From: Capillimicrobium sp.
Lineage (GTDB): Bacteria; Actinomycetota; Thermoleophilia; Solirubrobacterales; Solirubrobacteraceae
Assembly (NCBI GenBank): GCA_035565675.1
Contig: DATMSA010000037.1
Span: 13,173-53,172 of the forward strand
DNA: 40,000 bases
Direction: 5' to 3'
Below the pieces are notes generated by a model, which saw only the letters and a list, made by a program, of their open reading frames with translations, was not told the DNA's origin and did no database searches. Positions 7,054-21,216 of this stretch are shown here, in pieces. The position numbers and the translations under genes are program-made. Within the stretch, counting starts at the first letter, position 1; every line of letters begins with the position of its first letter.

Positions 7054-7914
7054 GTGACCCCAGGCCAGACCACGCAGATCACCCCGGCGGCGCCCGTGCC
7101 GATGCGACGCGTGCGCCCGGCGGCCGAGGCGCCCGCCGCCCAACCGGCGGCGGCGATCGAGCGCGCCGCCCGGCCGGTGCGCCTCGAGGCGCTGAACGCC
7201 TGGTACGGGTCCCATCACACGGTCAGGGACGTGAGCCTGACGTTCCCGGCCAACGCGGCGACGGCGCTCATCGGCCCGTCGGGCTCGGGCAAGTCGACGG
7301 TCGTGCGGTGCATCAACCGCATGCACGAGGAGATCCGCGGCGCCCGCGCGCAGGGGCGCGTGCTGCTCGACGACGTCGACGTTTACCACCCGAAGGTCGA
7401 CGTCGGCGCGGTGCGGCGCGCGATCGGCATGGTCTTCCAGAAGCCCAACCCGTTCCCGACGATGTCGATCTACGACAACGTCGCCGCCGGCGTGCGCCTC
7501 ACGCAGCGGCGGGTCTCGCGCGACCAGGTCGAGTCGGCGCTGCGGCGCGCGAACCTGTGGGACGAGGTCAAGGACCGCCTCGACCGCCCCGGCCACGGCC
7601 TCTCCGGCGGCCAGCAGCAGCGGCTGTGCATCGCCCGCGCGCTCGCCGTCGAGCCCGAGGTGCTGCTGATGGACGAGCCCGCCTCCGCGCTGGACCCGAT
7701 CTCGACACTGAAGATCGAGGAGCTCGTCCAGGAGCTCAAGCAGCGCCTGACGATCGTGATCGTCACCCACAACATGCAGCAGGCGGCGCGCGTCGCCGAC
7801 CGCACCGCGTTCCTGCTCGACGGGCAGGTCGTCGAGGAGGGGCCGACCGAGACGATCTTCACGGCGCCGCGCGACCGCCGCACCGAGGACTACGTCAGCG
7901 GGCGGTTCGGATGA
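7054..7914 (+). CDS. pstB: phosphate ABC transporter ATP-binding protein, second copy (pstB2)
   Basis: GTG 7054 is preceded by AAGGAG. Walker A is [54 protein letters not shown] and VTHNMQQA are PstB hallmarks, and the protein is similar throughout to the PstB at 11875..12738. Confidence 0.85.
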
Positions 7915-8603
7915 GCGGCACCGGGATGCGCGTCCACTTCCACGAGGAGCTGGCCGCGCTGGAGACGCAGGCGCTCGGCGGCATCGACCTCGTCGTCGGC
8001 CAGCTCGACCGCGTGATGGAGGCGCTCACCCACCAGGACGTCGAGCTCGCCAGCTTCGTCATCGCCGACGACGACCGCCTCGACGGGCGCTACCTGGAGG
8101 TCAACCAGGGGATCCTGTCGCTCCTGGCGCTGCAGGCACCGGTCGCCGGCGACCTGCGCGTCGTCGCGGCACTGCTGCACGTGATCAAGCACGTCGAGCG
8201 CATGGGCGACCAGTGCGTGAACGTCGCCAAGCTCATCCCGCTCGCCGGCCACGAGCCGCCGCGGCTGCCGGAGATCGTCGAGCAGCTCATGCACATGGGT
8301 CAGTTCGCGCGCAGCCAGGCGCTGCAGGCGAAGACGTCGTTCGCCGAGCGCGACGTGGCGCTCGCCCGCGACCTCGTGCGCCAGGACCGAGAGATCAACC
8401 GGCTCAACCGCGAGATCTTCAACACGGCGCTCGCGGTCGGCGACGACCCGGACGTGCGCGAGTGGGCGATGCACATGGTCCTCGTCGCCCGGGCGCTCGA
8501 GCGCATCGGCGACAACGCGGTCGACATCGGCGAGCAGACGGCGTTCGTCGTGACCGGCCTGTTCCGCGAGTTCACCGACTCGTCGGACCACGCCGAGACG
8601 TGA
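7911..8603 (+). CDS. phoU: phosphate signalling complex protein PhoU
   Basis: ATGA overlap with pstB2. Two PhoU repeats are present, with the ERMGD and [12 protein letters not shown] motifs. Confidence 0.9.
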
Positions 8604-8612
8604 GGCCGTACG

Positions 8613-8656
8613 TTCACAGGGCTTTCACACCGCGGCGACAGGTCGGTAACAGGCTG
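8613..8656 (+). promoter_or_regulatory. PHO-box-like array of four 11-bp-phased units (TTCACA, TTCACA, GCGACA, GTAACA)
   Basis: Hexamers start at 8613, 8624, 8635 and 8646. The array ends 60 nt upstream of the pstS TTG at 8717. Confidence 0.6.
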
Positions 8657-8716
8657 CCCGGTGTCGGGGCGCGAGGCTGACCTCGCAACCCCACGAGGAC
8701 GAGAAGGAGCTCTCAG

Positions 8717-9850
8717 TTGAGACCGACACGCACGATCACCGCGCTGGCCCTGTGCGGCGCGCTCGCCGTCGGCGCCGCCGCGTGCGGAGACGACGACGAC
8801 AACGGCAGCACCGGCACCACGGGCGGCGGCGCCGCCACCGCGCAGGCCGCAGCGACGTCGCTGTCGGGCCAGATCGCCGGCGCCGGCGCGAGCTCGCAGG
8901 CGGCCGCGCAGGAGGCGTGGATCGCCGGCTTCCAGACCGCCAACCCCGACGTGACGATCTCCTACGACCCCGTCGGCTCCGGCGGCGGCCGCGAGCAGTT
9001 CGTGGCCGGCGGCACCGCGTTCGGCGGCACCGACTCGGCGCTGGCCGACGAGGAGCTCACCGGCGCCCAGGAGCGCTGCGGCGGCGTCGACAACCTGATC
9101 GAGATCCCGGCCTACGTGTCGCCGATCGCGATCGCCTACAACGTCCCCGGCGTCGAGGAGCTGAAGCTCGCGCCCGAGACGCTGGCCCGGATCTTCAAGC
9201 AGGAGATCAAGAACTGGAACGACCCGGCGATCGCCGCGACGAACGAGGGTGTCGAGCTGCCCGACCAGGCGATCACCGTCGTCAACCGCTCCGACGAGTC
9301 CGGCACGACCGAGAACTTCGTCGAGTACCTCGCCGCCGTCGCCCCCGACGTGTGGACGTTCGAGGTGAGCGGCGACTGGCCCGTGAAGGGCGGCGAGGCG
9401 GCCGAGGGCACGTCCGGCGTCGTGGACGCGATCCGCAACGGCGAGGGCTCGATCGGCTACGCCGACGCCAGCCAGGTCGGCGATCTCGGCGTCGTGCAGG
9501 TGCAGGTCGGCGAGGACTTCGTCGGCCCGACCCCCGAGGCGGCGGCCGAGATCTTCGCCGACTCGGAGCGCACCGAGGGCGAGGGCGCGAACGTGTTCAC
9601 GTACACGCTGAACCGCGAGACGGAGGCCTCGGGCACGTACCCGATCGTGCTCGTGTCCTACCTGATGGCCTGCACGCAGTACGACTCCGCGCAGGAGGCC
9701 GACATCGTCAAGGCCTACCTGAGCTACCTGATCAGCCCGGAGGGCCAGGACGCGGCCGCCCAGGCGGCCGGCTCGGCCCCGATCTCCGACGAGACCCGGG
9801 CGCTGATCCAGCCCGCCATCGACGCGATCGGCGGTGGCTCGGCCTCCTAG
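8717..9850 (+). CDS. pstS: phosphate ABC transporter substrate-binding lipoprotein PstS
   Basis: TTG start preceded by GAAGGAG. A signal peptide with Cys (AVGAAAC) is followed by a low-complexity linker. SGAGASSQ, SYDPVGSGGG, RSDESGTT and GSIGY are PstS motifs. Confidence 0.9.
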   Translation: MRPTRTITALALCGALAVGAAACGDDDDNGSTGTTGGGAATAQAAATSLSGQIAGAGASSQAAAQEAWIAGFQTANPDVTISYDPVGSGGGREQFVAGGTAFGGTDSALADEELTGAQERCGGVDNLIEIPAYVSPIAIAYNVPGVEELKLAPETLARIFKQEIKNWNDPAIAATNEGVELPDQAITVVNRSDESGTTENFVEYLAAVAPDVWTFEVSGDWPVKGGEAAEGTSGVVDAIRNGEGSIGYADASQVGDLGVVQVQVGEDFVGPTPEAAAEIFADSERTEGEGANVFTYTLNRETEASGTYPIVLVSYLMACTQYDSAQEADIVKAYLSYLISPEGQDAAAQAAGSAPISDETRALIQPAIDAIGGGSAS

Positions 9851-11878: not shown

Positions 11879-12738
11879 CCGAGCACGCATCGACCGCCGC
11901 CGGCGAGGCCGCGGCCACCGCCGCCCCGCGCGGCGGCGCCGCCACGGTGGAGGCCGTCGCGGCCAAGGCCGTCGAGGTCAGCGACCTGAACCTGTACTAC
12001 GGCGACTTCCACGCCGTGAAGGACGTCAACCTGCGCATCGAGCCCAACGCGGTGACGGCGCTGATCGGCTCCTCCGGCTGCGGCAAGTCGACGTTCCTGC
12101 GCTCGCTGAACCGCATGCACGAGCTGGTGCCGGGCGGCCGGGTCGAGGGGTCGATCCGCCTCGACGGCGACGACATCTACGCCCCCGACGTCGACCCGGT
12201 CGCCGTGCGGCGGCAGATCGGCATGGTCTTCCAGGCGCCCAACCCGTTCCCGACGATGTCGATCTACGACAACGTCGCGGCCGGGCTGAAGCTCACGCGC
12301 CGCCGGCGCGACCGGGCGGGTCTCGACGAGATCGTCGAGCGCTCGCTGCGCCAGGCGCACCTGTGGGACGAGGTCAAGGACCGCCTCGACAGGCCCGGCA
12401 TCGGGCTCTCCGGCGGCCAGCAGCAGCGGCTGTGCATCGCCCGCACGATCGCCGTGGAGCCCGAGGTCGTGCTGATGGACGAGCCCGCGTCCGCGCTGGA
12501 CCCGATCTCGACGCTCGCGATCGAGGACCTCATGATCGAGCTCAAGGAGCGCTACACGATCGTGATCGTCACCCACAACATGCAGCAGGCGGGGCGGGCG
12601 AGCGACTACACCGCGTTCTTCAACATCGCGGGCGTCGGCGAGCCCGGGATGCTCGTCGAGTTCGACACCACCGAGAAGATCTTCTCCAACCCCTCCGAGC
12701 CCGCCACCGAGGACTACATCAGCGGACGGTTCGGCTGA
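11875..12738 (+). CDS. pstB: phosphate ABC transporter ATP-binding protein PstB
   Basis: ATGA overlap with pstA. Walker A is GSSGCGKST, with the signature [13 protein letters not shown] and C-terminal [10 protein letters not shown]. Confidence 0.92.
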
Positions 12739-13696: not shown

Positions 13697-14047
13697 GTGA
13701 AGCACGTCCGCAACTTCGCGATCGTCGCGGTCCTGGCGTTCGGCGTCTACGCCCTGCCGGGCGGGGACACGGCCGCCGACCTGTTCGGCGCCACGCTGTT
13801 CGTGATCCTGACGATCGGGATCGGCCTGCTGGCCGCGCGCCTGTACCGCGAGCGCCGCTTCGACATCGAGGCGCTCGGCGACCGCTGGCGGCTCGTGCTG
13901 TACGGGGCGCTGGGCGCGATCGTGCTCGCGCTGGCCGCCTCCCCGGAGCTGTTCGACACCGGCCTGGGGACCGTCGCGTGGATCGCGATCATGGCCGCGT
14001 GCGTCTACGCGCTCGTGCGCGTGTTCCGCCACGCGCGCGAGTACTGA
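13697..14047 (+). CDS. hypothetical membrane protein
   Basis: 116 aa with about 4 TM helices. GTG 13697 lies 4 nt after the regulator stop. I recognise no family. Confidence 0.45.
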   Translation: MKHVRNFAIVAVLAFGVYALPGGDTAADLFGATLFVILTIGIGLLAARLYRERRFDIEALGDRWRLVLYGALGAIVLALAASPELFDTGLGTVAWIAIMAACVYALVRVFRHAREY

Positions 14048-14119: not shown

Positions 14120-14470
14120 GTGGCCATGGCGCGAGGGCAGCGAGGACAGGCGGCGGTGGAGCTGGTGGCGCTGCTGCCGCTCGTCGCGCTGCTGGGCCTG
14201 CTGGCGTGGCAGGCGGTCGTCGCCGGGCAGGCGGTGTGGCTGTCGGGTGCGGCGGCGCGGGCGGCCGCGCGGGCCGACGCGATCGGGGCCGACGCGCAGG
14301 CGGCGGCGCGCGGGGTGCTGCCCGGGTCCTTGGCGCGCGGCACGCGCGTGGTGGGGGAGGGCGACACCGCCGGCGACGTGACCGTGCGCGTGGCGATCCC
14401 GGCCGTGGTCGGCGGGATCGAGCTGGCGGCGATCCGGACGCGGGCGCGCTTCGCGCCGCAGGAGGGGTGA
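14120..14470 (+). CDS. TadE-like pilus assembly (pseudopilin) protein
   Basis: The N-terminus RGQRGQAAVELVALLPLVALL matches the TadE-like G-x-x-x-VE plus hydrophobic segment. Small protein. Confidence 0.65.
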   Translation: MAMARGQRGQAAVELVALLPLVALLGLLAWQAVVAGQAVWLSGAAARAAARADAIGADAQAAARGVLPGSLARGTRVVGEGDTAGDVTVRVAIPAVVGGIELAAIRTRARFAPQEG

Positions 14471-14473
14471 CGG

Positions 14474-14854
14474 GTGGGGCCGCGTGGGACCGTGCGCGTG
14501 CTCCGGGCGCGGAATGCGCATGTCTCGGGCGCCCGCGGGCAGGCGACGGTCGAGCTGGTGGGGATGCTGCCCATCCTCGTGGTGGTCGCGCTGGCGGCGG
14601 CGCAGCTCCTGGCGGCGGGCGTGGCGCGCGAGCTGGCCGGCCACGCGGCGCAGGCGGGCGCGATGGCGCTGCTGCAGGGCGGCGAGGCCGGCCGGGCCGC
14701 GCGCGACGCGGTGCCCGGCTGGGCGCGCGACCGCATGACCGTCTCGGTGCGCGGCCGGCGCGTCGAGGTCGTGCTGCGCCCGCCGGCGCCGGTGCGCGCG
14801 GTCGGCGACGGGCTGGCGGCGCGGGCCGTCGCGACGGCTGGGGCCGAGTCGTGA
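14474..14854 (+). CDS. TadE-like pilus assembly (pseudopilin) protein
   Basis: ARGQATVELVGMLPILVVVALAAAQ is the same class of N-terminal motif. The exact start is uncertain. Confidence 0.6.
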   Translation: MGPRGTVRVLRARNAHVSGARGQATVELVGMLPILVVVALAAAQLLAAGVARELAGHAAQAGAMALLQGGEAGRAARDAVPGWARDRMTVSVRGRRVEVVLRPPAPVRAVGDGLAARAVATAGAES

Positions 14855-16044
14855 GCGCGGTCGCGCGCTGGTTCGTGCGGCCCGCGGGCGAGGCGCGCGC
14901 CCCGGCGGCGCGCGAGGTGCGGGCCGGGCGCGCGGCGCCGCCGGCCCTGGCGATCGTCGCCGCCGGCCCGGCGGCGCTGCCCGCCGCCGCGGCGGCCGCG
15001 CTGCGCCACGCCGGCAGCGGGGCGGTCGTGCTGTGCTGCTGGCGGGTGGCCGGGGCCGGGCGCGCGCGGGGCGTCGTCCCGCTGCCGGCGGCCCGGCGGC
15101 TGGCCGCGTCGCTGGCGGCGCGGGGGCTGGAGGCGGTCGCGTCCGGCCGGCTCGTGCGCGTGGCGCTGCCGGCCGGCGACGCGCAGGCGGTCGCCGCGCT
15201 GCGCCGCGCGGAGGCGGCCTGCGGCGCCGCGCCGTGCGTCCCGGTCGTGGGCGGGCCGCGCGGGCCGGCGTGGGACCCGGTGCTGGCCGAGCGCGACCTG
15301 GTGCTGGTGCACGGTGACGACCCGGCGGTGGTGGGGCTGGCGGTCGCGCGGCTCGCCGCCGAGCGCTGCGCCGCGGCGCCGCTGGACGGGGCGCCGCCGC
15401 GGCCGCTGCGGGGGCTGGCGGTGGCCGGCCTGGTCCTGCCCGCGCCGCGGCCGCGGTCGCCGCGGTCGCCGCGGTCGCCGCGCGCCGCCGACGGGCAGGC
15501 CGCGGTGCTGCTCGTCGCGATCCTCTGCGCGGTCCTGCTCGGCGCGGCGGTCCTCGGCCTGCTGGCCGCCGGCGTCAACGCGCACGGCCGCCAGCAGCGG
15601 GCCGCCGACCTCGGCGCGCTCGCGGCGGCTCGGCGCATGCACGACCTGCACCCGCGGCTGTTCGAGCCGGCGCTCGTCGACGGCGCGCCCAACCCCCGCC
15701 ACCTCGAGCGCGCCGCGTACCTGGCGGCCGCGCGCGAGGCCGGCGAGGCGGTCGCGCGCGCCAACGGCGCCGACGCGGTGGCGGTCACGTTCCCCGACGC
15801 CGATCCGATCGCGCCCGCGCTCGTGCGCGTGGCGGTCGGCGAGCGCGTGGCGGTCACGGTCGCGGGCGCCCGCGAGCGCATCGACGTGCGGGCCAGCGCC
15901 GACGCCCGGATCGTCCCGGTCGCCGCGCCGGACGGGGCGGCGTGGGGCGACGAGTACCGCGGCCCGTTCGCGGTGCGCCAGGGCCGGCGGATGCGCCCCG
16001 ACGTGGCCCAGGCCTTCGACCGCATGGCCGCCGCGGCCGCCGCC
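14851..16044 (+). pseudogene. TadG-like membrane protein with beginning of an M15 peptidase-like module, interrupted by insertion
   Basis: GTGA overlap with the preceding gene and strong GC3. An Ala-rich N-terminal region of about 190 aa is followed by DGQAAVLLVAILCAVLLGAAVLGLLAAG....QQRAADLGALAAAR (Tad/TadG N-terminal type; an alternative internal GTG lies at 15421). Next comes GPFAVRQGRRMRPDVAQAFDRMAAAA, resembling the start of VanY/M15 peptidases. Coding character changes at about 16045. Confidence 0.5.
15445..15480 (+). repeat. 9-bp tandem repeat CCGCGGTCG x3 (encodes PRS x3)
   Basis: Read directly at 15451-15477 with partial copies on both flanks. It is in frame in the linker before the TadG-like TM segment. 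Confidence 0.85.
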
Positions 16045-16614
16045 TGGACCTCTGTAGCCCTCGGCGGTCAGCGCATCGCCTACGGCTCGCTCTGTCAGGC
16101 CGGAAGCGCGCAGCTCCCGTGCGCGAGCCTCGACGTAGGGGGCGATGACCCGCGCGCGTCCCAGCCGAACGCCGGCCGCTCGCCGTGCCGCTAACGCTTC
16201 GCGCGTGCGCTGCGAGATCAAGCGTCGCTCGTACTGGGCGAACGTAGCCCGCACGTTGGCCATCATCTCGCCCTCGGGGGTGGTCGTGTCCACGCCGAGG
16301 TCAAGCGCCACGACACTCCACCGCTCGCGCTGCGCCCGCGCCATGAGCGACGCGAAGTCGAGCATGGAGCGTGAGAGGCGGTCGAGACGCGACACGCACA
16401 GCGCGTCAGCATCCCCAGCATCGAGAGCGTCGAGCGCGCACCGGATGCCAGGCCGGTTCATGTCCTTGGCGGAGTAGCCCGCGTCCTCGATGAACTCGAC
16501 CGACCAACCGCGTCGGTCGGCTTCCGCCTGGATCGCCGAACGCTGAGCGTCGATGCCCGCGCCGCTGTTCGCCTGCTCGGCCGTCGACACGCGGAGGTAG
16601 CCGAGGACCCTCAT
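16045..16614 (-). CDS. small serine recombinase (resolvase/invertase family); 3' end undefined
   Basis: MRVLGYLRVSTAEQ (catalytic Ser), SRLDRLSRS, FAQYERRLISQRT and a C-terminal HTH (LRASGLTERAVGDALTAEGY). There is no in-frame stop near the expected length; the frame runs on, antisense to the host gene, down to 14005. Confidence 0.8.
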
Positions 16615-16829
16615 CCGCCCCGTCCAAGACCCGCGAGCAGTCGTGCCCGCCGGTGGACCGCGCCCGCGTAGGTGGCGACTTCCGCCCATGCGGCGCGGCG
16701 GTCGTTGTCGTTGTCGCTGGCTACCGAGACGGCGACGACGAGCCGTGCCATCAGCGCCTTGATCTCGGTCGCGCGCTCGGTGTCTGACTTGCCGCGCGCG
16801 GGGACGCGCGTAGGCTTCGACTTGTCCAT
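16611..16829 (-). CDS. hypothetical small protein, translationally coupled to recombinase
   Basis: 72 aa. ATG 16829 follows AGGAGGAG with 8-nt spacing, and its stop overlaps the recombinase ATG (ATGA). I recognise no family. Confidence 0.4.
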   Translation of the reverse strand: MDKSKPTRVPARGKSDTERATEIKALMARLVVAVSVASDNDNDRRAAWAEVATYAGAVHRRARLLAGLGRGG

Positions 16830-17083
16830 GGAGATCACTCCTCCTGGGCCATGGCCCCGGACGGTTACCGCCGTCGCGGGGCCGACTAGTGGTTGAAGCC
16901 CTCACCGTAGCTGCTCCCAAGACCACCGTCAACGGAGCAGTATCCGGGAAAATCCCTGCTTATGGGCAGTTTTTCGCGGTAGTTGTCCCACAGGCGGAGA
17001 ATGAAGCGAAGTGGTACGAAGGCCCTGGACCGGACGGAATTCCGATCTGGCGCGCGTCCGCTGTGCGTGTCACCCTGCCGGCG

Positions 17084-17770
17084 ATGTCGACTGGACACTC
17101 CTTCAACCCGCTGGACCGCGTCGAGCTTGGTCGCAGCGTTGGTCGCGCCCTGCTCCTGAGCGAGTGCGGTCCTCTGCCGCCCGAGCCGTTCGCCGGAGCG
17201 GGCATCTACGCCATCTACTACCAAGGCGACTTCGACGCCTACGCGCCGCTGGCCATCCCCGGCTGCGTGTGGCCAATCTACGTCGGTCGAGCCATGCCGT
17301 CCGGTGGTCGCAAGGGTCTTGTTGGACTCGACGCCTCGCCCGGACCTAAGCTGCACGCGCGCCTGCGTGAGCACGCCAAGTCGCTTGACGCCGCGACCAA
17401 CCTGAAACGCGATCACTTCCGCTGCCGCTACCTGGTCGTGGACGACATCTGGATTCCCTTGGCGGAACGACTCCTGATCGGCCACTACCGCCCGGTCTGG
17501 AACGGCGTCGTTGACGGCTTCGGCATCCACGACCCTGGCGGCAAGCCGGGCGGACGAACGGGCCGCGCGGGGCAGATGAAGTCGCTGTGGGACACCCTGC
17601 ATCCCGGACGCGCGTTCGCTGATGGTCGCGAGGAGAAGGCGTCGGTCGAGGAGATCCGCGACCGGATCGCGGAGCACCTGTTCGAGCACCCGCCTCGCGA
17701 CGAGGAGATGCCCGTTCTCGGCGAACCGCCTGCAAGCGATGAGGAAGTGGGCGAGGAGGACGACGCGTAG
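17084..17770 (+). CDS. GIY-YIG nuclease, Eco29kI-like type II restriction endonuclease (putative)
   Basis: 228 aa from ATG 17084. GIYAIYY...(25 aa)...PIYVGRA is a GIY-YIG core, followed by RLREH, PLAERLLIGHYRPVWN, GFGIHDPGG..GR and SLWDTLHPGR, which I recall as characteristic of the Eco29kI family. It lies directly upstream of a C5-MTase. Confidence 0.6.
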   Translation: MSTGHSFNPLDRVELGRSVGRALLLSECGPLPPEPFAGAGIYAIYYQGDFDAYAPLAIPGCVWPIYVGRAMPSGGRKGLVGLDASPGPKLHARLREHAKSLDAATNLKRDHFRCRYLVVDDIWIPLAERLLIGHYRPVWNGVVDGFGIHDPGGKPGGRTGRAGQMKSLWDTLHPGRAFADGREEKASVEEIRDRIAEHLFEHPPRDEEMPVLGEPPASDEEVGEEDDA

Positions 17771-17788
17771 GCCGGACGAGACCCCTTC

Positions 17789-19132
17789 ATGGGCCCAGAA
17801 GGGGTCGACGTCTGTCCGACGCTTGCGCTTCACTCCTCCTGCGTGAGCACCATCGTCGAGCAGCAGGACGCGGCCACTGATCCTCGCGCGCTTGTAGCCG
17901 ATCCGACCTCTATCGAGTTGTTCGCTGGCGGCGGCGGGATGGCCCTCGGTCTTCACCTTGCAGGCTTCTCCCACAAGGCCGTGAACGAGCTTGACGGTCG
18001 ATCTGTCGAGACGTTGGAAGCGAACCGGCGGCAAGTCGGCGGATGGCCGCTCAAGCCCGGCGATGTGACGAAGCAGGCGTGGGACGGCTTCCATCGCGAC
18101 GTGACGCTGATCGCGGGTGGCGCGCCGTGCCAGCCGTTCAGCATCGGCGGCGTCCACCGAGGCGACGGCGACCCTCGCAATCTCTGGCCCGCCTTCATCG
18201 ACGTTGTCGACCGTGTCCGCCCGCTGGCGGCCATCGGGGAGAACGTACGCGGGCTGACGCGGCCCAGCTTCCTGCCGTACTTGGACTACATCTGCGACCG
18301 GCTGTCCGCTCCAACGCTCAAGCCGGAGGTAGACGAGTCGTGGCAGGAGCACGACGCGCGCCTTCGGGAAGCACTCGCGTATGAGGACTTGGAGGACGAC
18401 GAGCGGTACCTGGTCGACCGTCGCGTGGTCCTCGCGGCGGACTACGGCGTCCCGCAGATGCGCTACCGCTTGTTCATCGTCGCGTTCCGCGCCGACACGG
18501 GGGTGCAGTGGAACGCTGATGCTCCCTACGGTGAGCGCTGGACGTGGCCCGAGCCGACCCACAGCCGTGAAGCCCTACTGGCAACGCAGGAAGATGGCAC
18601 GTACTGGGAACGCCACGGGATCGCGCCGAGGACGCTGGACCTCCCCGCGCGTCGTCTCGCGGAGCTTGATCGCGCCCGGAGGAAGATGCTGGTTGGCGAA
18701 GTGAAGCCGTGGCGCACGTTGCGCGACGCGCTGACAGGTCAACTGGACGACGACGGCTTCAAGCCGCTGCCTGAGCCGGTCGACGGGCGGGAGACAGGCG
18801 GCTTCAACTTCCACATCGGCATCCCTGGAGCGCGGCTCTACAAGGGCCACTCCGGCAACGCGCTGGATGCGCCGGCGAAGACGATCAAGGCGGGTGTCCA
18901 CGGTGTCCCCGGTGGCGAGCACATCGCTCTACTTGACGACGGCAGCCATAGGTATCTGACGGTTCGCGAGTGCGCGCGGGTGCAGACCTTCCCGGATTCC
19001 TGGGTGTTCAAGGGTCCGAGGTCGGAGGCCAGTCGCCAGATCGGGAACGCGGTGCCTGTGCGGCTTGCGAGGATCATGGGAGAGCATGTCCGCGACGCTC
19101 TCGCCCGTGGCCTTCAAGGCGAAGAAGACTGA
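17789..19132 (+). CDS. DNA (cytosine-5)-methyltransferase
   Basis: Motif I ELFAGGGGMALG, IV GGAPCQPFS, VI ENVRGL, VIII QMRYRLFIVAF, IX-X RYLTVRECARVQTFPD and QIGNAVPVRLA. The start is uncertain (ATG 17789 or GTG 17844). Confidence 0.9.
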   Translation: MGPEGVDVCPTLALHSSCVSTIVEQQDAATDPRALVADPTSIELFAGGGGMALGLHLAGFSHKAVNELDGRSVETLEANRRQVGGWPLKPGDVTKQAWDGFHRDVTLIAGGAPCQPFSIGGVHRGDGDPRNLWPAFIDVVDRVRPLAAIGENVRGLTRPSFLPYLDYICDRLSAPTLKPEVDESWQEHDARLREALAYEDLEDDERYLVDRRVVLAADYGVPQMRYRLFIVAFRADTGVQWNADAPYGERWTWPEPTHSREALLATQEDGTYWERHGIAPRTLDLPARRLAELDRARRKMLVGEVKPWRTLRDALTGQLDDDGFKPLPEPVDGRETGGFNFHIGIPGARLYKGHSGNALDAPAKTIKAGVHGVPGGEHIALLDDGSHRYLTVRECARVQTFPDSWVFKGPRSEASRQIGNAVPVRLARIMGEHVRDALARGLQGEED

Positions 19133-19568
19133 GCCGCAGCTGCGCGACGCGGCTACCACGTCGCGCATCATGGCGAGGGTCAAGGGTCGCGACACGGAGC
19201 CGGAACTAGCGCTCCGTAGAGCGCTGCATGCTCGCGGCCTGCGCTACAGGGTGCACCCGCGTGACGTGACCGGGCGGCCCGACCTCGTCAATCGCTCGCG
19301 TCGCGTCGCGGTGTTCGTGGACGGCGACTTCTGGCACGGCAACCCGGCGGAGTGGCAGCGGCGTGGGTTCGCGTCGATGGAGGAGCAGTTCCCCAAGGGC
19401 AAGCGCGAGTACTGGACGGCGAAGCTACGCCGCAACATCGCTCGAGACCAGGAGGTCACAGCGGCGTTGGAGTCAGACGGGTGGACCGTCGTCCGGCTGT
19501 GGGAATCCGAAATCCGCGCGAACGTGGAGGGAGCGGCTGACAGGGTGGAAGCTGCATGGCGACACTGA
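19086..19568 (+). CDS. vsr: very short patch repair endonuclease Vsr
   Basis: TSRIMARVKGRDTEPE, LR..LH..GLRYR, VAVFVDGDFWHG and WTVVRLWE. ATG 19086 follows GGGAGAG and overlaps the MTase 3' end by 47 nt. Confidence 0.85.
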   Translation: MSATLSPVAFKAKKTEPQLRDAATTSRIMARVKGRDTEPELALRRALHARGLRYRVHPRDVTGRPDLVNRSRRVAVFVDGDFWHGNPAEWQRRGFASMEEQFPKGKREYWTAKLRRNIARDQEVTAALESDGWTVVRLWESEIRANVEGAADRVEAAWRH

Positions 19569-19900
19569 AGGCACATCCCCTCTGGGCCGAGCACAAGCCC
19601 ACCCCGGAGACTTGGCGTGCGCCCCGAGGTCGCTCGATGGCTGAGGCCGTCGCCGAGCAAGACGACGCGGCTGGAGGCGCTGGTCAGCGCGTGGTGACCC
19701 TCGATGGTGGACGGCGTTCGACCGGGTCCATCGAGTTGAAGTTCCTTGGTGGGCGGCGCATCTACGCCTACCTTCGCTATACCGACAATGGGAGGACGGT
19801 GGCGGTATACGTGGGCGAGGCTACGGGCGAGACGCGCATGGAGCGCCTACGGTCAGCGTGGAGGATCGTGCACGCGCGCGGGTTGACGCGGCGCGGCTGA
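19556..19900 (+). CDS. hypothetical protein (last gene of cassette)
   Basis: 114 aa, overlapping the vsr stop. The conserved-looking C-terminal half is IELKFLGGRRIYAYLRYTDNGRTVAVYVGEATGETRMERLRSAW. I cannot assign a family, and the start is uncertain (ATG 19556 or 19637). Confidence 0.35.
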   Translation: MATLKAHPLWAEHKPTPETWRAPRGRSMAEAVAEQDDAAGGAGQRVVTLDGGRRSTGSIELKFLGGRRIYAYLRYTDNGRTVAVYVGEATGETRMERLRSAWRIVHARGLTRRG

Positions 19901-19939
19901 GCAGTTCAAGCGCATCCTCGGCGGGTGCGCCGACGTCGT

Positions 19940-20284
19940 GGCGTGCCTGGCAGCGTCCGCAACGCTGACGGGGACGCGCACGGCCAGGGCCGCAAGTCGT
20001 ACCGGCCTGGGGAGCGTCACGCCGCGCTCGCCGTCAACCTCGCGGGCAGTATGGCGCTGTCGCCATGGAGACGCACCAGGCCCGCGACGCGCCTTGAGGA
20101 CGCGACGAGGGGACGGCGGCGCGCTGGCCGCCGCCCGCCCATCCCGGCGGTGATCTAGCCGGTCATGGGTTCCTAGGGGCGCTGCGCGAGAAGTTCGCCC
20201 CGTCCCACGCGCGCGTGTCGTCCTCGCTGTGGCGGGGCGTCGACGACGATGATGGGCATCCCTTCGGGAAGCGGGAACCACTGA
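19940..20284 (+). pseudogene. possible decayed middle part of the interrupted M15-like module
   Basis: High GC again, but no single open frame. Weak M15-like strings occur in frame 2 (GSVRNADGDA, PGERHAALAVNL) and then frame 1 (HPFGKREPLM), before TGA 20282-20284 precedes the conserved WEPWHW in frame 2. This is weak, motif-level evidence only. Confidence 0.25.
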
Positions 20285-20335
20285 TGGGAGCCCTGGCACT
20301 GGGGGTTCGTCCTCAACGCCGGGAGCAACGCGGCG

Positions 20336-20815
20336 ATGGCCCGCCGCCGCGGCGGCGACGGGGAGCGCGGCGGCGCGCTGCCGACGTTCGTGCCGGAGCG
20401 CTACGCGCCGGCGATCTCGCGCGCGGCGCAGCGCTGGAACGTGTCGGCGACGCTGCTGGCCGCGCAGCTCCAGAAGGAGTCGGGCTTCAACCCGTTCGCG
20501 GTCTCGCCGGCGGGCGCGCGCGGGATCGCCCAGTTCATGCCGGGCACGGCGGCCGCCTACGGGCTGGCCAACCCGCACGACCCCGACGCCGCGATCGACG
20601 CGCAGGCGCATCTCATGCGCGACCTGCTGCGGCAGTTCGGCTCGGTCCCGCTCGCGCTGGCCGCCTACAACGCCGGGCCGGCGCGCGTGGCCGCCTGCGG
20701 CTGCGTGCCGCCGATCCCCGAGACCACGGCCTACGTGGCGGCGATCCTCGGGCTGATGGGCGGCGCCGGCGACCCGGCCGGCCTGGGCGGCCTGGAGATC
20801 CGGCTGGTGCGCTGA
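20336..20815 (+). CDS. lytic transglycosylase (SLT domain); C-terminal module of interrupted gene or independently expressed remnant
   Basis: LLAAQLQKESGFNPFAVSPAGARGIAQFMPGTA and LALAAYNAGP are SLT family motifs. The same frame upstream reads WEPWHWGFVLNAGS from 20285, immediately after an in-frame TGA. Confidence 0.7.
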   Translation: MARRRGGDGERGGALPTFVPERYAPAISRAAQRWNVSATLLAAQLQKESGFNPFAVSPAGARGIAQFMPGTAAAYGLANPHDPDAAIDAQAHLMRDLLRQFGSVPLALAAYNAGPARVAACGCVPPIPETTAYVAAILGLMGGAGDPAGLGGLEIRLVR

Positions 20816-20833
20816 GATGCCCGACGTCCCCAC

Positions 20834-20882
20834 GTTGCTTGTCAGCTTTTGCGTACCAGGGACGCAAAAGGCGACAAGCAAC
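20834..20882. other. long imperfect hairpin (relatively AT-rich)
   Basis: GTTGCTTGTC-ag-CTTTTGCGT-accaggg-ACGCAAAAG-gc-GACAAGCAAC, 19 nt after the SLT stop. It may be a terminator or a protein-binding palindrome. Confidence 0.5.
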
Positions 20883-20913
20883 GGGAGGGGAGCGGCGCGG
20901 GGAGGAGAGGGCG

Positions 20914-20968
20914 GCGTGTGCCGGGCGCGGCCGGGGACAGGGGGTCCGGCCGCGCCCGCGACACACGC
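20914..20968. other. very stable GC hairpin (13-bp + 7-bp stems)
   Basis: CGGGCGCGGCCGG (20922-20934) pairs with CCGGCCGCGCCCG (20946-20958). The outer pair is GCGTGTG/CACACGC. It is flanked by GGAGGAGAGGG copies at 20901 and 20986. Confidence 0.5.
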
Positions 20969-21216
20969 GGGACAGGTCCTCCGCGGGAGGAGAGGGAGAG
21001 CGCGGAGGTCCCACGCTCTCCATCGGACCCGCGTCCGGCGACCTTGAGCCCCGGATCCCCGAGATCGTTGGGGTTCGGACAATCGTCCAATCGGCCCCGT
21101 CACGGGCCGGGCCGCGTATGGTCCCGGCATGGCCTCACCGCTGGTCGCCTCCGCCGTGATGACGTCGGCGCTCGTGATCGCCGCGATCCTCGCGCTCGGC
21201 CTGCCGCTCTACCAGC

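Follow-up and report, generated by a model that had tools for sequence, protein, structure and literature searches.

A 4240-bp foreign segment with a restriction-modification-Vsr cassette in a tad-locus cell-wall enzyme gene of Capillimicrobium sp., probably an internal fragment of an integrative element

In a 40,000-nucleotide stretch of contig DATMSA010000037.1 of Capillimicrobium sp. (GenBank assembly GCA_035565675.1, positions 13,173 to 53,172; hereafter the window), a gene for a TadG-VanY-SLT cell-wall enzyme is interrupted by 4240 bp of foreign DNA at 16045-20284. From left to right, this segment contains a small serine recombinase gene of the resolvase/invertase type that has lost its 3' end, a coupled open reading frame (ORF) of 72 amino acids (aa), a conserved non-coding block, a four-gene restriction-modification (R-M) cassette with a vsr gene, the remnant of an Abi_C-domain gene, and a right-end stretch of 186 bp (Table 1). 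By its closest protein and locus matches, the window, at about 74% GC, is chromosomal DNA from a member of the Solirubrobacterales. A preliminary description of this DNA, made from the sequence letters, had reported a lower-GC segment with A/T runs extending from 16045 to about 19940, and the compositional part of that report was confirmed by a GC profile that is far from flat. The GC content is 0.6825 over 16045-20284 versus 0.7414 in the remaining window, and 274 other windows of 4240 bp all have values of at least 0.714 (mean 0.734, standard deviation 0.011). GC content at third codon positions (GC3) is 0.77-0.84 for genes in the segment versus 0.96-0.99 for host genes, and A/T runs of at least 4 occur at 0.47/kb inside the segment versus 0.11/kb outside it. 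The anomaly is genuine and well past chance. The left boundary (16044/16045) is exact, as first reported; the right boundary lies at 20284/20285, which is 345 bp past the end point given earlier, and position 19939 marks only the end of the R-M cassette, the part with the lowest GC content. The GC content is 0.67 in the cassette, 0.70-0.71 in the resolvase part, and 0.72-0.74 in the Abi_C remnant and the right-end 186 bp, compared with 0.74 in the host, and this gradation fits a mosaic origin. Both junctions are spanned in two independent assemblies and the right junction alone in two more (ENA, Logan, JGI), and these assemblies are essentially identical across the insert.

Table 1. Features of the foreign segment and of the interrupted host gene, with positions counted from the first letter of the window; labels of the type L001 denote loci fetched for comparison.
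Feature	Position	Strand	Evidence and remarks
Host gene, 5' part	15454..16044	+	TadG-like N-terminus and first ~30 residues of VanY/M15; corresponds to P0001 aa 8-205; tblastn 81% identity; GC3 0.99; codon-level comparison with L009, L006
Left junction	16036..16044		9-nt GCCGCCGCC, readable as host Ala run and, on the other strand, as resolvase GGCGGCGGC (Gly-Gly-Gly)
Small serine recombinase (resolvase/invertase type), 3'-truncated	16045..16614	-	PF00239 2.4e-38, 131.9 bits, profile positions 2-144 of 145
72-aa ORF	16611..16829	-	Stop codon overlaps resolvase start codon; 51% and 49% aa identity to same-position ORFs in L001 and L004
Conserved ~193-nt non-coding block	16830..17022	-	Precedes the operon of the 72-aa ORF and resolvase; promoter-like hexamers TTGACGG and TACGGT; GC-rich 5' hairpin before start codon
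193-nt block in relatives	L001 3737-3935; L002 7341-7540; L003 3334-3531; L004 6078-6276; L005 4336-4535		
Eco29kI-family GIY-YIG type II restriction endonuclease, intact	17084..17770	+	PF09517 1-164/164, 178.5 bits (cut-off 30.8); PADLOC REase_II
C5 cytosine DNA methyltransferase, intact	17789..19132	+	PF00145 9.4e-50, 170.3 bits; TIGR00675 131.2 bits (cut-off 100.65); PADLOC MTase_II 307 bits
Vsr very-short-patch-repair endonuclease	19086..19568	+	Overlaps methylase 3' end; PF03852 83.7 bits (cut-off 27); TIGR00632 121.3 bits (cut-off 97.85)
ORF7, 114 aa	19556..19900	+	Overlaps Vsr stop; fourth gene of cassette
Abi_C-domain gene remnant, last ~64 codons	19899..20098	+	Two frameshifts, three frames; 76% aa identity (28/37) to L004 Abi_C aa 219-255; DNA alignment
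Foreign DNA matching nothing	20099..20284		186 bp; includes 36-codon minus-strand ORF tail 20175-20284 cut by right junction
Host gene, 3' part	20285..20815	+	EPWHW end of VanY/M15, then SLT lytic transglycosylase domain; corresponds to P0001 aa 275-452; tblastn 85% identity; PF01464 1.3e-22

The two flanks had been taken for pieces of one host protein, and this proved correct. The closest intact homolog (P0001, 452 aa, VanY + SLT) spans both of them, with its aa 275-452 aligned to 20285-20812, and the SLT domain scores 80 bits against PF01464. A search with the joined flanks returned 6665 homologs at E <= 1e-5, and the best 120 of these are single proteins of 420-524 aa that all contain VanY (PF02557) and SLT (PF01464), some of them also with a TadE/G-like N-terminus. 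The contiguity of VanY and SLT, which is present and widespread in relatives, is broken in the window, where the VanY core is deleted and the two halves stand 4.2 kb apart. Directly observed in the alignments is the absence of P0001 aa 206-274 (69 codons, ~207 bp) from the window, and the same picture was obtained with all six homologs tested. The lost codons encode the metallopeptidase core, including the zinc-ligand region ...SLHRLGTELDL.... Because 69 host codons are gone, the event was a replacement and not a clean insertion; the earlier statement that foreign DNA interrupts a host gene thus stands, whereas an uninterrupted empty site cannot be rebuilt by joining the flanks. The lost codons were sought in every frame of 19901-20284 and were not found. 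A weak minus-strand likeness between 20177-20392 and the TadG-like N-terminus (32% identity, E = 0.024) was set aside as chance, since half of it is antisense to the true host gene. The metagenome-assembled genome GCA_046330215.1 has the same upstream order without the insert: phosphate transporter (Pst), PhoU, response regulator, small ORFs, and then the VanY-SLT gene. Several features of the host flanks were noted in passing. The region 14400-16000 is extremely GC-rich (0.84-0.87). The Ala/Arg-rich ORF at 14851-15453 continues into the TadG-like gene in the same frame, with no stop codon between them, and the two are separate genes in relative L006. The fused 447-aa product predicted by gene callers includes 150 nt of antisense resolvase. 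Immediately after the SLT stop codon lies a long, near-perfect palindrome (20827-20889), a candidate terminator or repeated palindromic element; Rfam searches over 15500-21000 gave only a spurious two-strand miRNA match to this palindrome, and most of the differences between assembly L027 and the window fall within it or close by.

At the left end, the recombinase gene is cut. Its catalytic domain is complete, with the active-site serine and the YLRVSTAEQ motif, and profile searches agree with the earlier resolvase call, as they do with those of the Eco29kI-like nuclease, the C5 methyltransferase, Vsr, and the SLT domain. Its C-terminal DNA-binding domain is incomplete: the last ~20 residues, the final helix, and the gene's own stop codon are gone. 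Nine resolvase relatives (72-84% identity) of 205-216 aa (full length is generally 206-216 aa) end in ...GPTGGAWHPSTLHRVLTRA, whereas the match of the window copy stops at ...GYRGPGGG; its reading frame then passes through antisense host sequence, where the first stop codon comes at 14005. At the nucleotide level, host homology reaches up to 16044 and resolvase homology (CCN GGC GGC GG in L004) reaches to about 16036, so that the 9 nt of GCCGCCGCC are common to both parents at the left junction. The window resolvase matched seven NCBIfam serine-recombinase models, including those for the IS607 transposase and the Mpi invertase, in each case with a score under the cut-off. The coupled 72-aa ORF, which the preliminary description had pointed out, is indeed conserved in the loci of two relatives; it has no match in Pfam, NCBIfam, PADLOC, or PHROGs.

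The right end is likewise cut inside a gene. Past ORF7, the foreign DNA runs on for 384 bp. Following the Abi_C remnant, the 186 bp at 20099-20284 are not host DNA and had no match in the fetched loci or the family libraries, and a reading frame on the minus strand agrees with their GC3 phase. It was considered whether the cut ORF tail (20175-20284) is the C-terminus of an integrase, and this was rejected: it has no similarity to the L004 integrase, no NCBIfam match, and no counterpart in the fetched loci. Since the resolvase and the minus-strand ORF are each cut at a junction, both ends of the foreign DNA lie inside genes. A repeat search over 15700-20600 gave only scattered short matches, with no direct or inverted pair at the junctions 16045 and 20284 and no target duplication or terminal repeats at the two ends of the segment. 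Neither a tRNA gene (ARAGORN) nor an attachment (att) site was found within the window.

The R-M cassette is intact. The nuclease aligned with the Eco29kI structures 3mx1/3mx4/3nic at E = 1e-29, with its GIY...YVG region aligned; the classical m5C motifs (FAGGGG, PCQ, ENV, QxRxR, and GNAVP) are all readable in the methylase translation; and the Vsr translation contains the catalytic region, as VFVDGDFWHG, and is called as a 160-aa gene in assemblies L025 and L026. The overlap of the methylase and vsr genes is the classical dcm-vsr arrangement. To judge from their sequences, the four genes probably work as a CCGCGG-type R-M system in which Vsr would mend the T:G mismatches that arise from deamination of 5-methylcytosine (m5C). 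The sequence CCGCGG occurs 0 times in the foreign 4.24 kb versus 4.4 expected and 87 times in the host versus 86.8 expected, counts that weakly suggest a CCGCGG system whose acquisition is too recent for it to have left a mark on the host sequence.

The fourth gene, ORF7, directly follows vsr in the cassette and appears to be tied to it. ORF7 was found in 15 of the 16 related cassette loci (L010, L012-L023, L120, and L121), and 238 representative relatives were recovered among 1.84 billion cluster representatives. Of ten longer relatives examined, eight are fusion proteins that join ORF7 to Vsr, in either order, or attach it to the C-terminus of a C5 methylase. Its AF2 model is a helix-sheet-helix with a predicted local distance difference test score (pLDDT) of 90; the fold has no match in the PDB, and no family could be assigned. 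Judged by these associations, ORF7 represents an uncharacterised domain linked to Vsr and m5C methylases, a putative partner of very-short-patch repair for which it may serve as an accessory factor. Actinobacteria are not known to have MutS and MutL, and we speculate that ORF7 might stand in for their stimulation of Vsr in this phylum. Being small, confidently folded, and a travelling companion of Vsr, it may be worth following up.

The two parts of the segment have different relatives. The five closest relatives of the resolvase that could be placed on contigs all lie inside larger integrative elements. A replication/regulation module with an AAA_25 protein and an HTH_31 regulator is present in three of these five; other genes encode Prim-Pol or Peptidase_S78 and Abi_C proteins, with a tyrosine integrase or a large serine recombinase at the far end. 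One element adjoins tRNA-Glu and three adjoin the same Trans_reg_C gene, and these are the normal integration sites of the resolvase-element family, unlike the site in the window. The ends in L002 (about 3825), L003 (about 790), and L005 (about 637) lie just upstream of this short Trans_reg_C gene, which is followed by a HATPase gene (and CpaB in L002), and at 4374-4615 of L004 the element adjoins tRNA-Leu/tRNA-Glu. The 193-nt block upstream of the operon was detected in all five loci by nhmmer (E = 3e-51 to 9e-24). Its homology breaks abruptly at CTTCGTACCAC, at a point common to the window and the four displayed relatives (L001 and L003-L005), with variable cargo beyond; CTTCGTACCAC, the outer edge of the block, holds an imperfect GTACCAC...GTGGGAC inverted repeat. 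A promoter scan of the divergent intergenic region gave no consensus match. Past the block, the cargo is different in each of the six loci, the window included. The slot holds a methylase-nuclease-Vsr trio in three of the six, each of a different specificity family (Eco29kI-type in the window, NgoMIV-type at 3900-7341 of L002, and SacI-type at 700-4336 of L005), and the remaining three loci have small, unrelated genes in it. More distant resolvase relatives (<=65% identity; metagenomes and viral contigs) have no 193-nt block and no detectable methylase or Vsr nearby.

The cassette, for its part, is found in quite different surroundings. All four genes are present in 14 other Solirubrobacterales loci and parts of the cassette in two more, of which one has no ORF7 (L011) and one is a contig that ends inside the cassette (L120). 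Pairwise comparison of 13 complete copies showed only ~2.8 kb in common, beginning ~40 bp ahead of the nuclease start codon and closing with the stop codon of ORF7, with flanks that are unrelated in nearly all pairs. The neighbours are defence genes (GmrSD, HEPN, HicA, and AAA_13), one TrwC/integrase element, or housekeeping genes, and the window resolvase is absent from all 16 loci. In L121 (nuclease 78% and ORF7 69% identical), the cassette is directly followed by an unrelated Hin/Tn3-like resolvase of 191 aa (8370-8945), which is 35% identical to the window enzyme and lies on the opposite side. No other distant serine recombinase was seen beside the cassette loci in Pfam scans that covered the top 25 families and immediate neighbours only, and a narrow local resolvase profile and phmmer missed even the large serine recombinase of L002. 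Two further features of these loci may be recorded: L121 has a ParB_N/HTH_ParB gene upstream, and a second, very divergent Eco29kI-like ORF stands directly upstream of the nuclease in L014 (9214-9945), L018 (9151-9930), and L019 (9199-9927), at 30 bits against PF09517, just under the cut-off. None of the observations that the preliminary description had named as telling against it, namely a flat GC profile, an ancestral gene order, no contiguous homolog, or failed profile calls, was made as worded. The nearest was the order of the cassette genes, which is shared by 15 other Solirubrobacterales loci; the flanks there are unrelated, and the order is therefore not a vertically inherited arrangement.

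We consider it probable, at roughly 60%, that the 4240 bp are an internal fragment of a Solirubrobacterales mobile integrative element that was captured by illegitimate recombination. In the donor element, the slot beside the small-resolvase operon would have been held by a compact, self-contained cassette (Eco29kI-type nuclease, m5C methylase, Vsr, and ORF7), which would itself have displaced most of an Abi_C gene. The captured fragment would have carried the promoter block, the 72-aa ORF, the resolvase without its last ~20 codons, the cassette, the Abi_C tail, and ~190 bp more of donor DNA. We infer that illegitimate recombination, through microhomology or end-joining, brought it into the chromosome, where it replaced the 207 bp (69 codons) that encode the zinc-binding core of the tad-locus enzyme. 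No site-specific step would have been involved, and the resolvase would now be a dead passenger. The segment has probably been retained despite the broken host gene through the addictive nature of the R-M system.

Several points weigh against this reading. A near-identical donor element was not found: the best relative of the cassette is 82% identical in DNA, and that of the resolvase is 84% identical in protein. Since only diverged relatives are available, the identification of the segment as an internal fragment rests on comparison with those, and the proposed donor has an order of Abi_C and resolvase that differs from that in L004. An element end or att site within the right-end 186 bp is conceivable. 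The 9-nt GCC repeat at the left junction, in a genome of 74% GC, is weak evidence of microhomology, and the R-M activity and specificity are predicted from the genes. No date for the insertion could be obtained from differences among the four assemblies, all of which are at contig ends; the four may represent one population, which gives no age.

Decay in two steps is unlikely, although it is the strongest of the alternatives. A whole element would have integrated into the VanY-SLT gene, by its own integrase or by chance, and later deletions would have removed 207 bp of host DNA along with the greater part of the element. The resolvase relatives do reside in elements of roughly at least 10 kb that have integrases, and the layout of the right end is similar to that of L004, where Abi_C adjoins the integrase at the element end, in that the Abi_C tail of the window is followed by a convergent cut ORF; the right-end 186 bp could hold the old end of the element. 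However, at least two separate deletions would be required, since the remnant is truncated within a gene on either side. The relatives integrate beside a tRNA gene or upstream of a Trans_reg_C gene and not into a VanY-SLT gene, the cut ORF tail has no detectable similarity to the C-terminus of the L004 integrase, and no att-like repeat was found over 15700-20600.

The variable cargo beside the 193-nt block suggests a further idea, which we regard as rather improbable. The small serine recombinase may have its own recombination site within the block, at which R-M-Vsr cassettes and other cargo would be captured or exchanged; this would be an integron-like system for defence-gene capture in actinobacterial integrative elements, of which the window copy would be a dead relic.

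More doubtful still is the proposal of the preliminary description itself, in which the resolvase and the R-M-Vsr genes form one small mobile unit that is inserted and excised by the small serine recombinase and is seen soon after insertion. The resolvase does adjoin the cassette, and both are compositionally foreign; R-M and Vsr sets occupy the same position beside close resolvase relatives in L002 and L005, and the cassette of L121 stands beside another small serine recombinase. Nevertheless, the window resolvase lacks its C-terminal DNA-recognition helix and stop codon, the insertion was imprecise at the cost of 207 bp of host DNA, and the ends carry no paired crossover-site repeats. The segment also encloses unrelated debris, that is, the Abi_C tail and the cut ORF. 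Nor does the unit recur: resolvase and cassette with these ends were seen together at no other site, the cargo in the five loci of close resolvase relatives is different, the window resolvase occurs in 0 of the 16 cassette loci, and the L121 enzyme is both dissimilar and on the other side. Movement of the cassette by this recombinase, caught in the act of disrupting a gene, was therefore not upheld; the locus is read instead as an ordinary scar of horizontal transfer. Finally, a mis-joining of metagenome reads from two organisms at the junctions is hardly credible, for although the material is metagenomic and the JGI sample that yielded L120, the closest relative of the cassette, bears a number adjacent to that of a sample with the window sequence, recovery of the right junction in four separate assemblies and of the left in two, with differences between assemblies only at contig ends, shows that the structure is not an assembly chimera.

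Elsewhere in the window, 7250-7812 and 12044-12618 share 82% DNA identity, the second lying within the phosphate-transporter ATPase (pstB-like) gene, and these seem to be two paralogous copies.

As a horizontal-transfer scar the locus is of an ordinary kind, and its value is in a clear dissection and in the correction of annotation. It provides a well-resolved case of how defence genes may reach a chromosome, in which an integrative element first carried the cassette as cargo and a piece of that element was then fixed in a host gene by non-site-specific recombination, at the cost of a tad-locus cell-wall enzyme. Gene models should be amended: the "host" ORF of 447 aa is an artefact of truncation, as is the long resolvase ORF, and the SLT ORF is a gene fragment. 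The conserved non-coding block, which marks a variable cargo slot by the resolvase, may also be worth following up.

The genes and their arrangement may be compared with several known systems. The vsr gene of the window, like that of the E. coli dcm/vsr pair, overlaps the 3' end of the methylase gene, and the Vsr models score above their cut-offs; unlike the E. coli pair, it belongs to a complete R-M system and is followed by a fourth, Vsr-linked gene, ORF7. To our knowledge, the E. coli Vsr has no ORF7-like partner. The resemblance to the Eco29kI R-M system (E. coli plasmid pECO29, CCGCGG) consists of a full-length PF09517 match, an adjoining m5C methylase in the same orientation, and a cassette free of CCGCGG, whereas the window system adds vsr and ORF7 and is chromosomal in Solirubrobacterales; the Eco29kI match covers 150 residues, and the specificity is only predicted. 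The recombinase shares with the small serine recombinases of the Tn3-family and Hin type an N-terminal catalytic domain with the active-site serine and, in its full-length relatives, a C-terminal helix-turn-helix; unlike them, the window copy has a DNA-binding domain that lacks its end, and paired sites of the res or hix-like type were not identified. Like the hotspots of defence cargo in integrative elements, prophages, and satellites, six loci have a conserved 193-nt block and resolvase operon beside a variable slot. These resolvase elements, a Solirubrobacterales family with AAA_25, HTH_31, and Prim-Pol genes and a tyrosine or large-serine integrase, are represented in the window by a fragment only, outside the normal integration sites.

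R-M systems with deviant GC content, their linkage to integrase, invertase, or resolvase genes, and their insertion into genes or operon-like clusters have been described (Furuta, Abe and Kobayashi 2010, PMC2853133). The earlier suggestion that R-M genes moved by a small serine recombinase, together with disruption of a gene, would be uncommon is not supported in view of that survey (PMC2853133). The mobile forms on which the survey centres are repeat-flanked units or have long target duplications, and the window has neither; it pairs instead a deletion in the host gene with a truncated recombinase, a combination that fits illegitimate capture.

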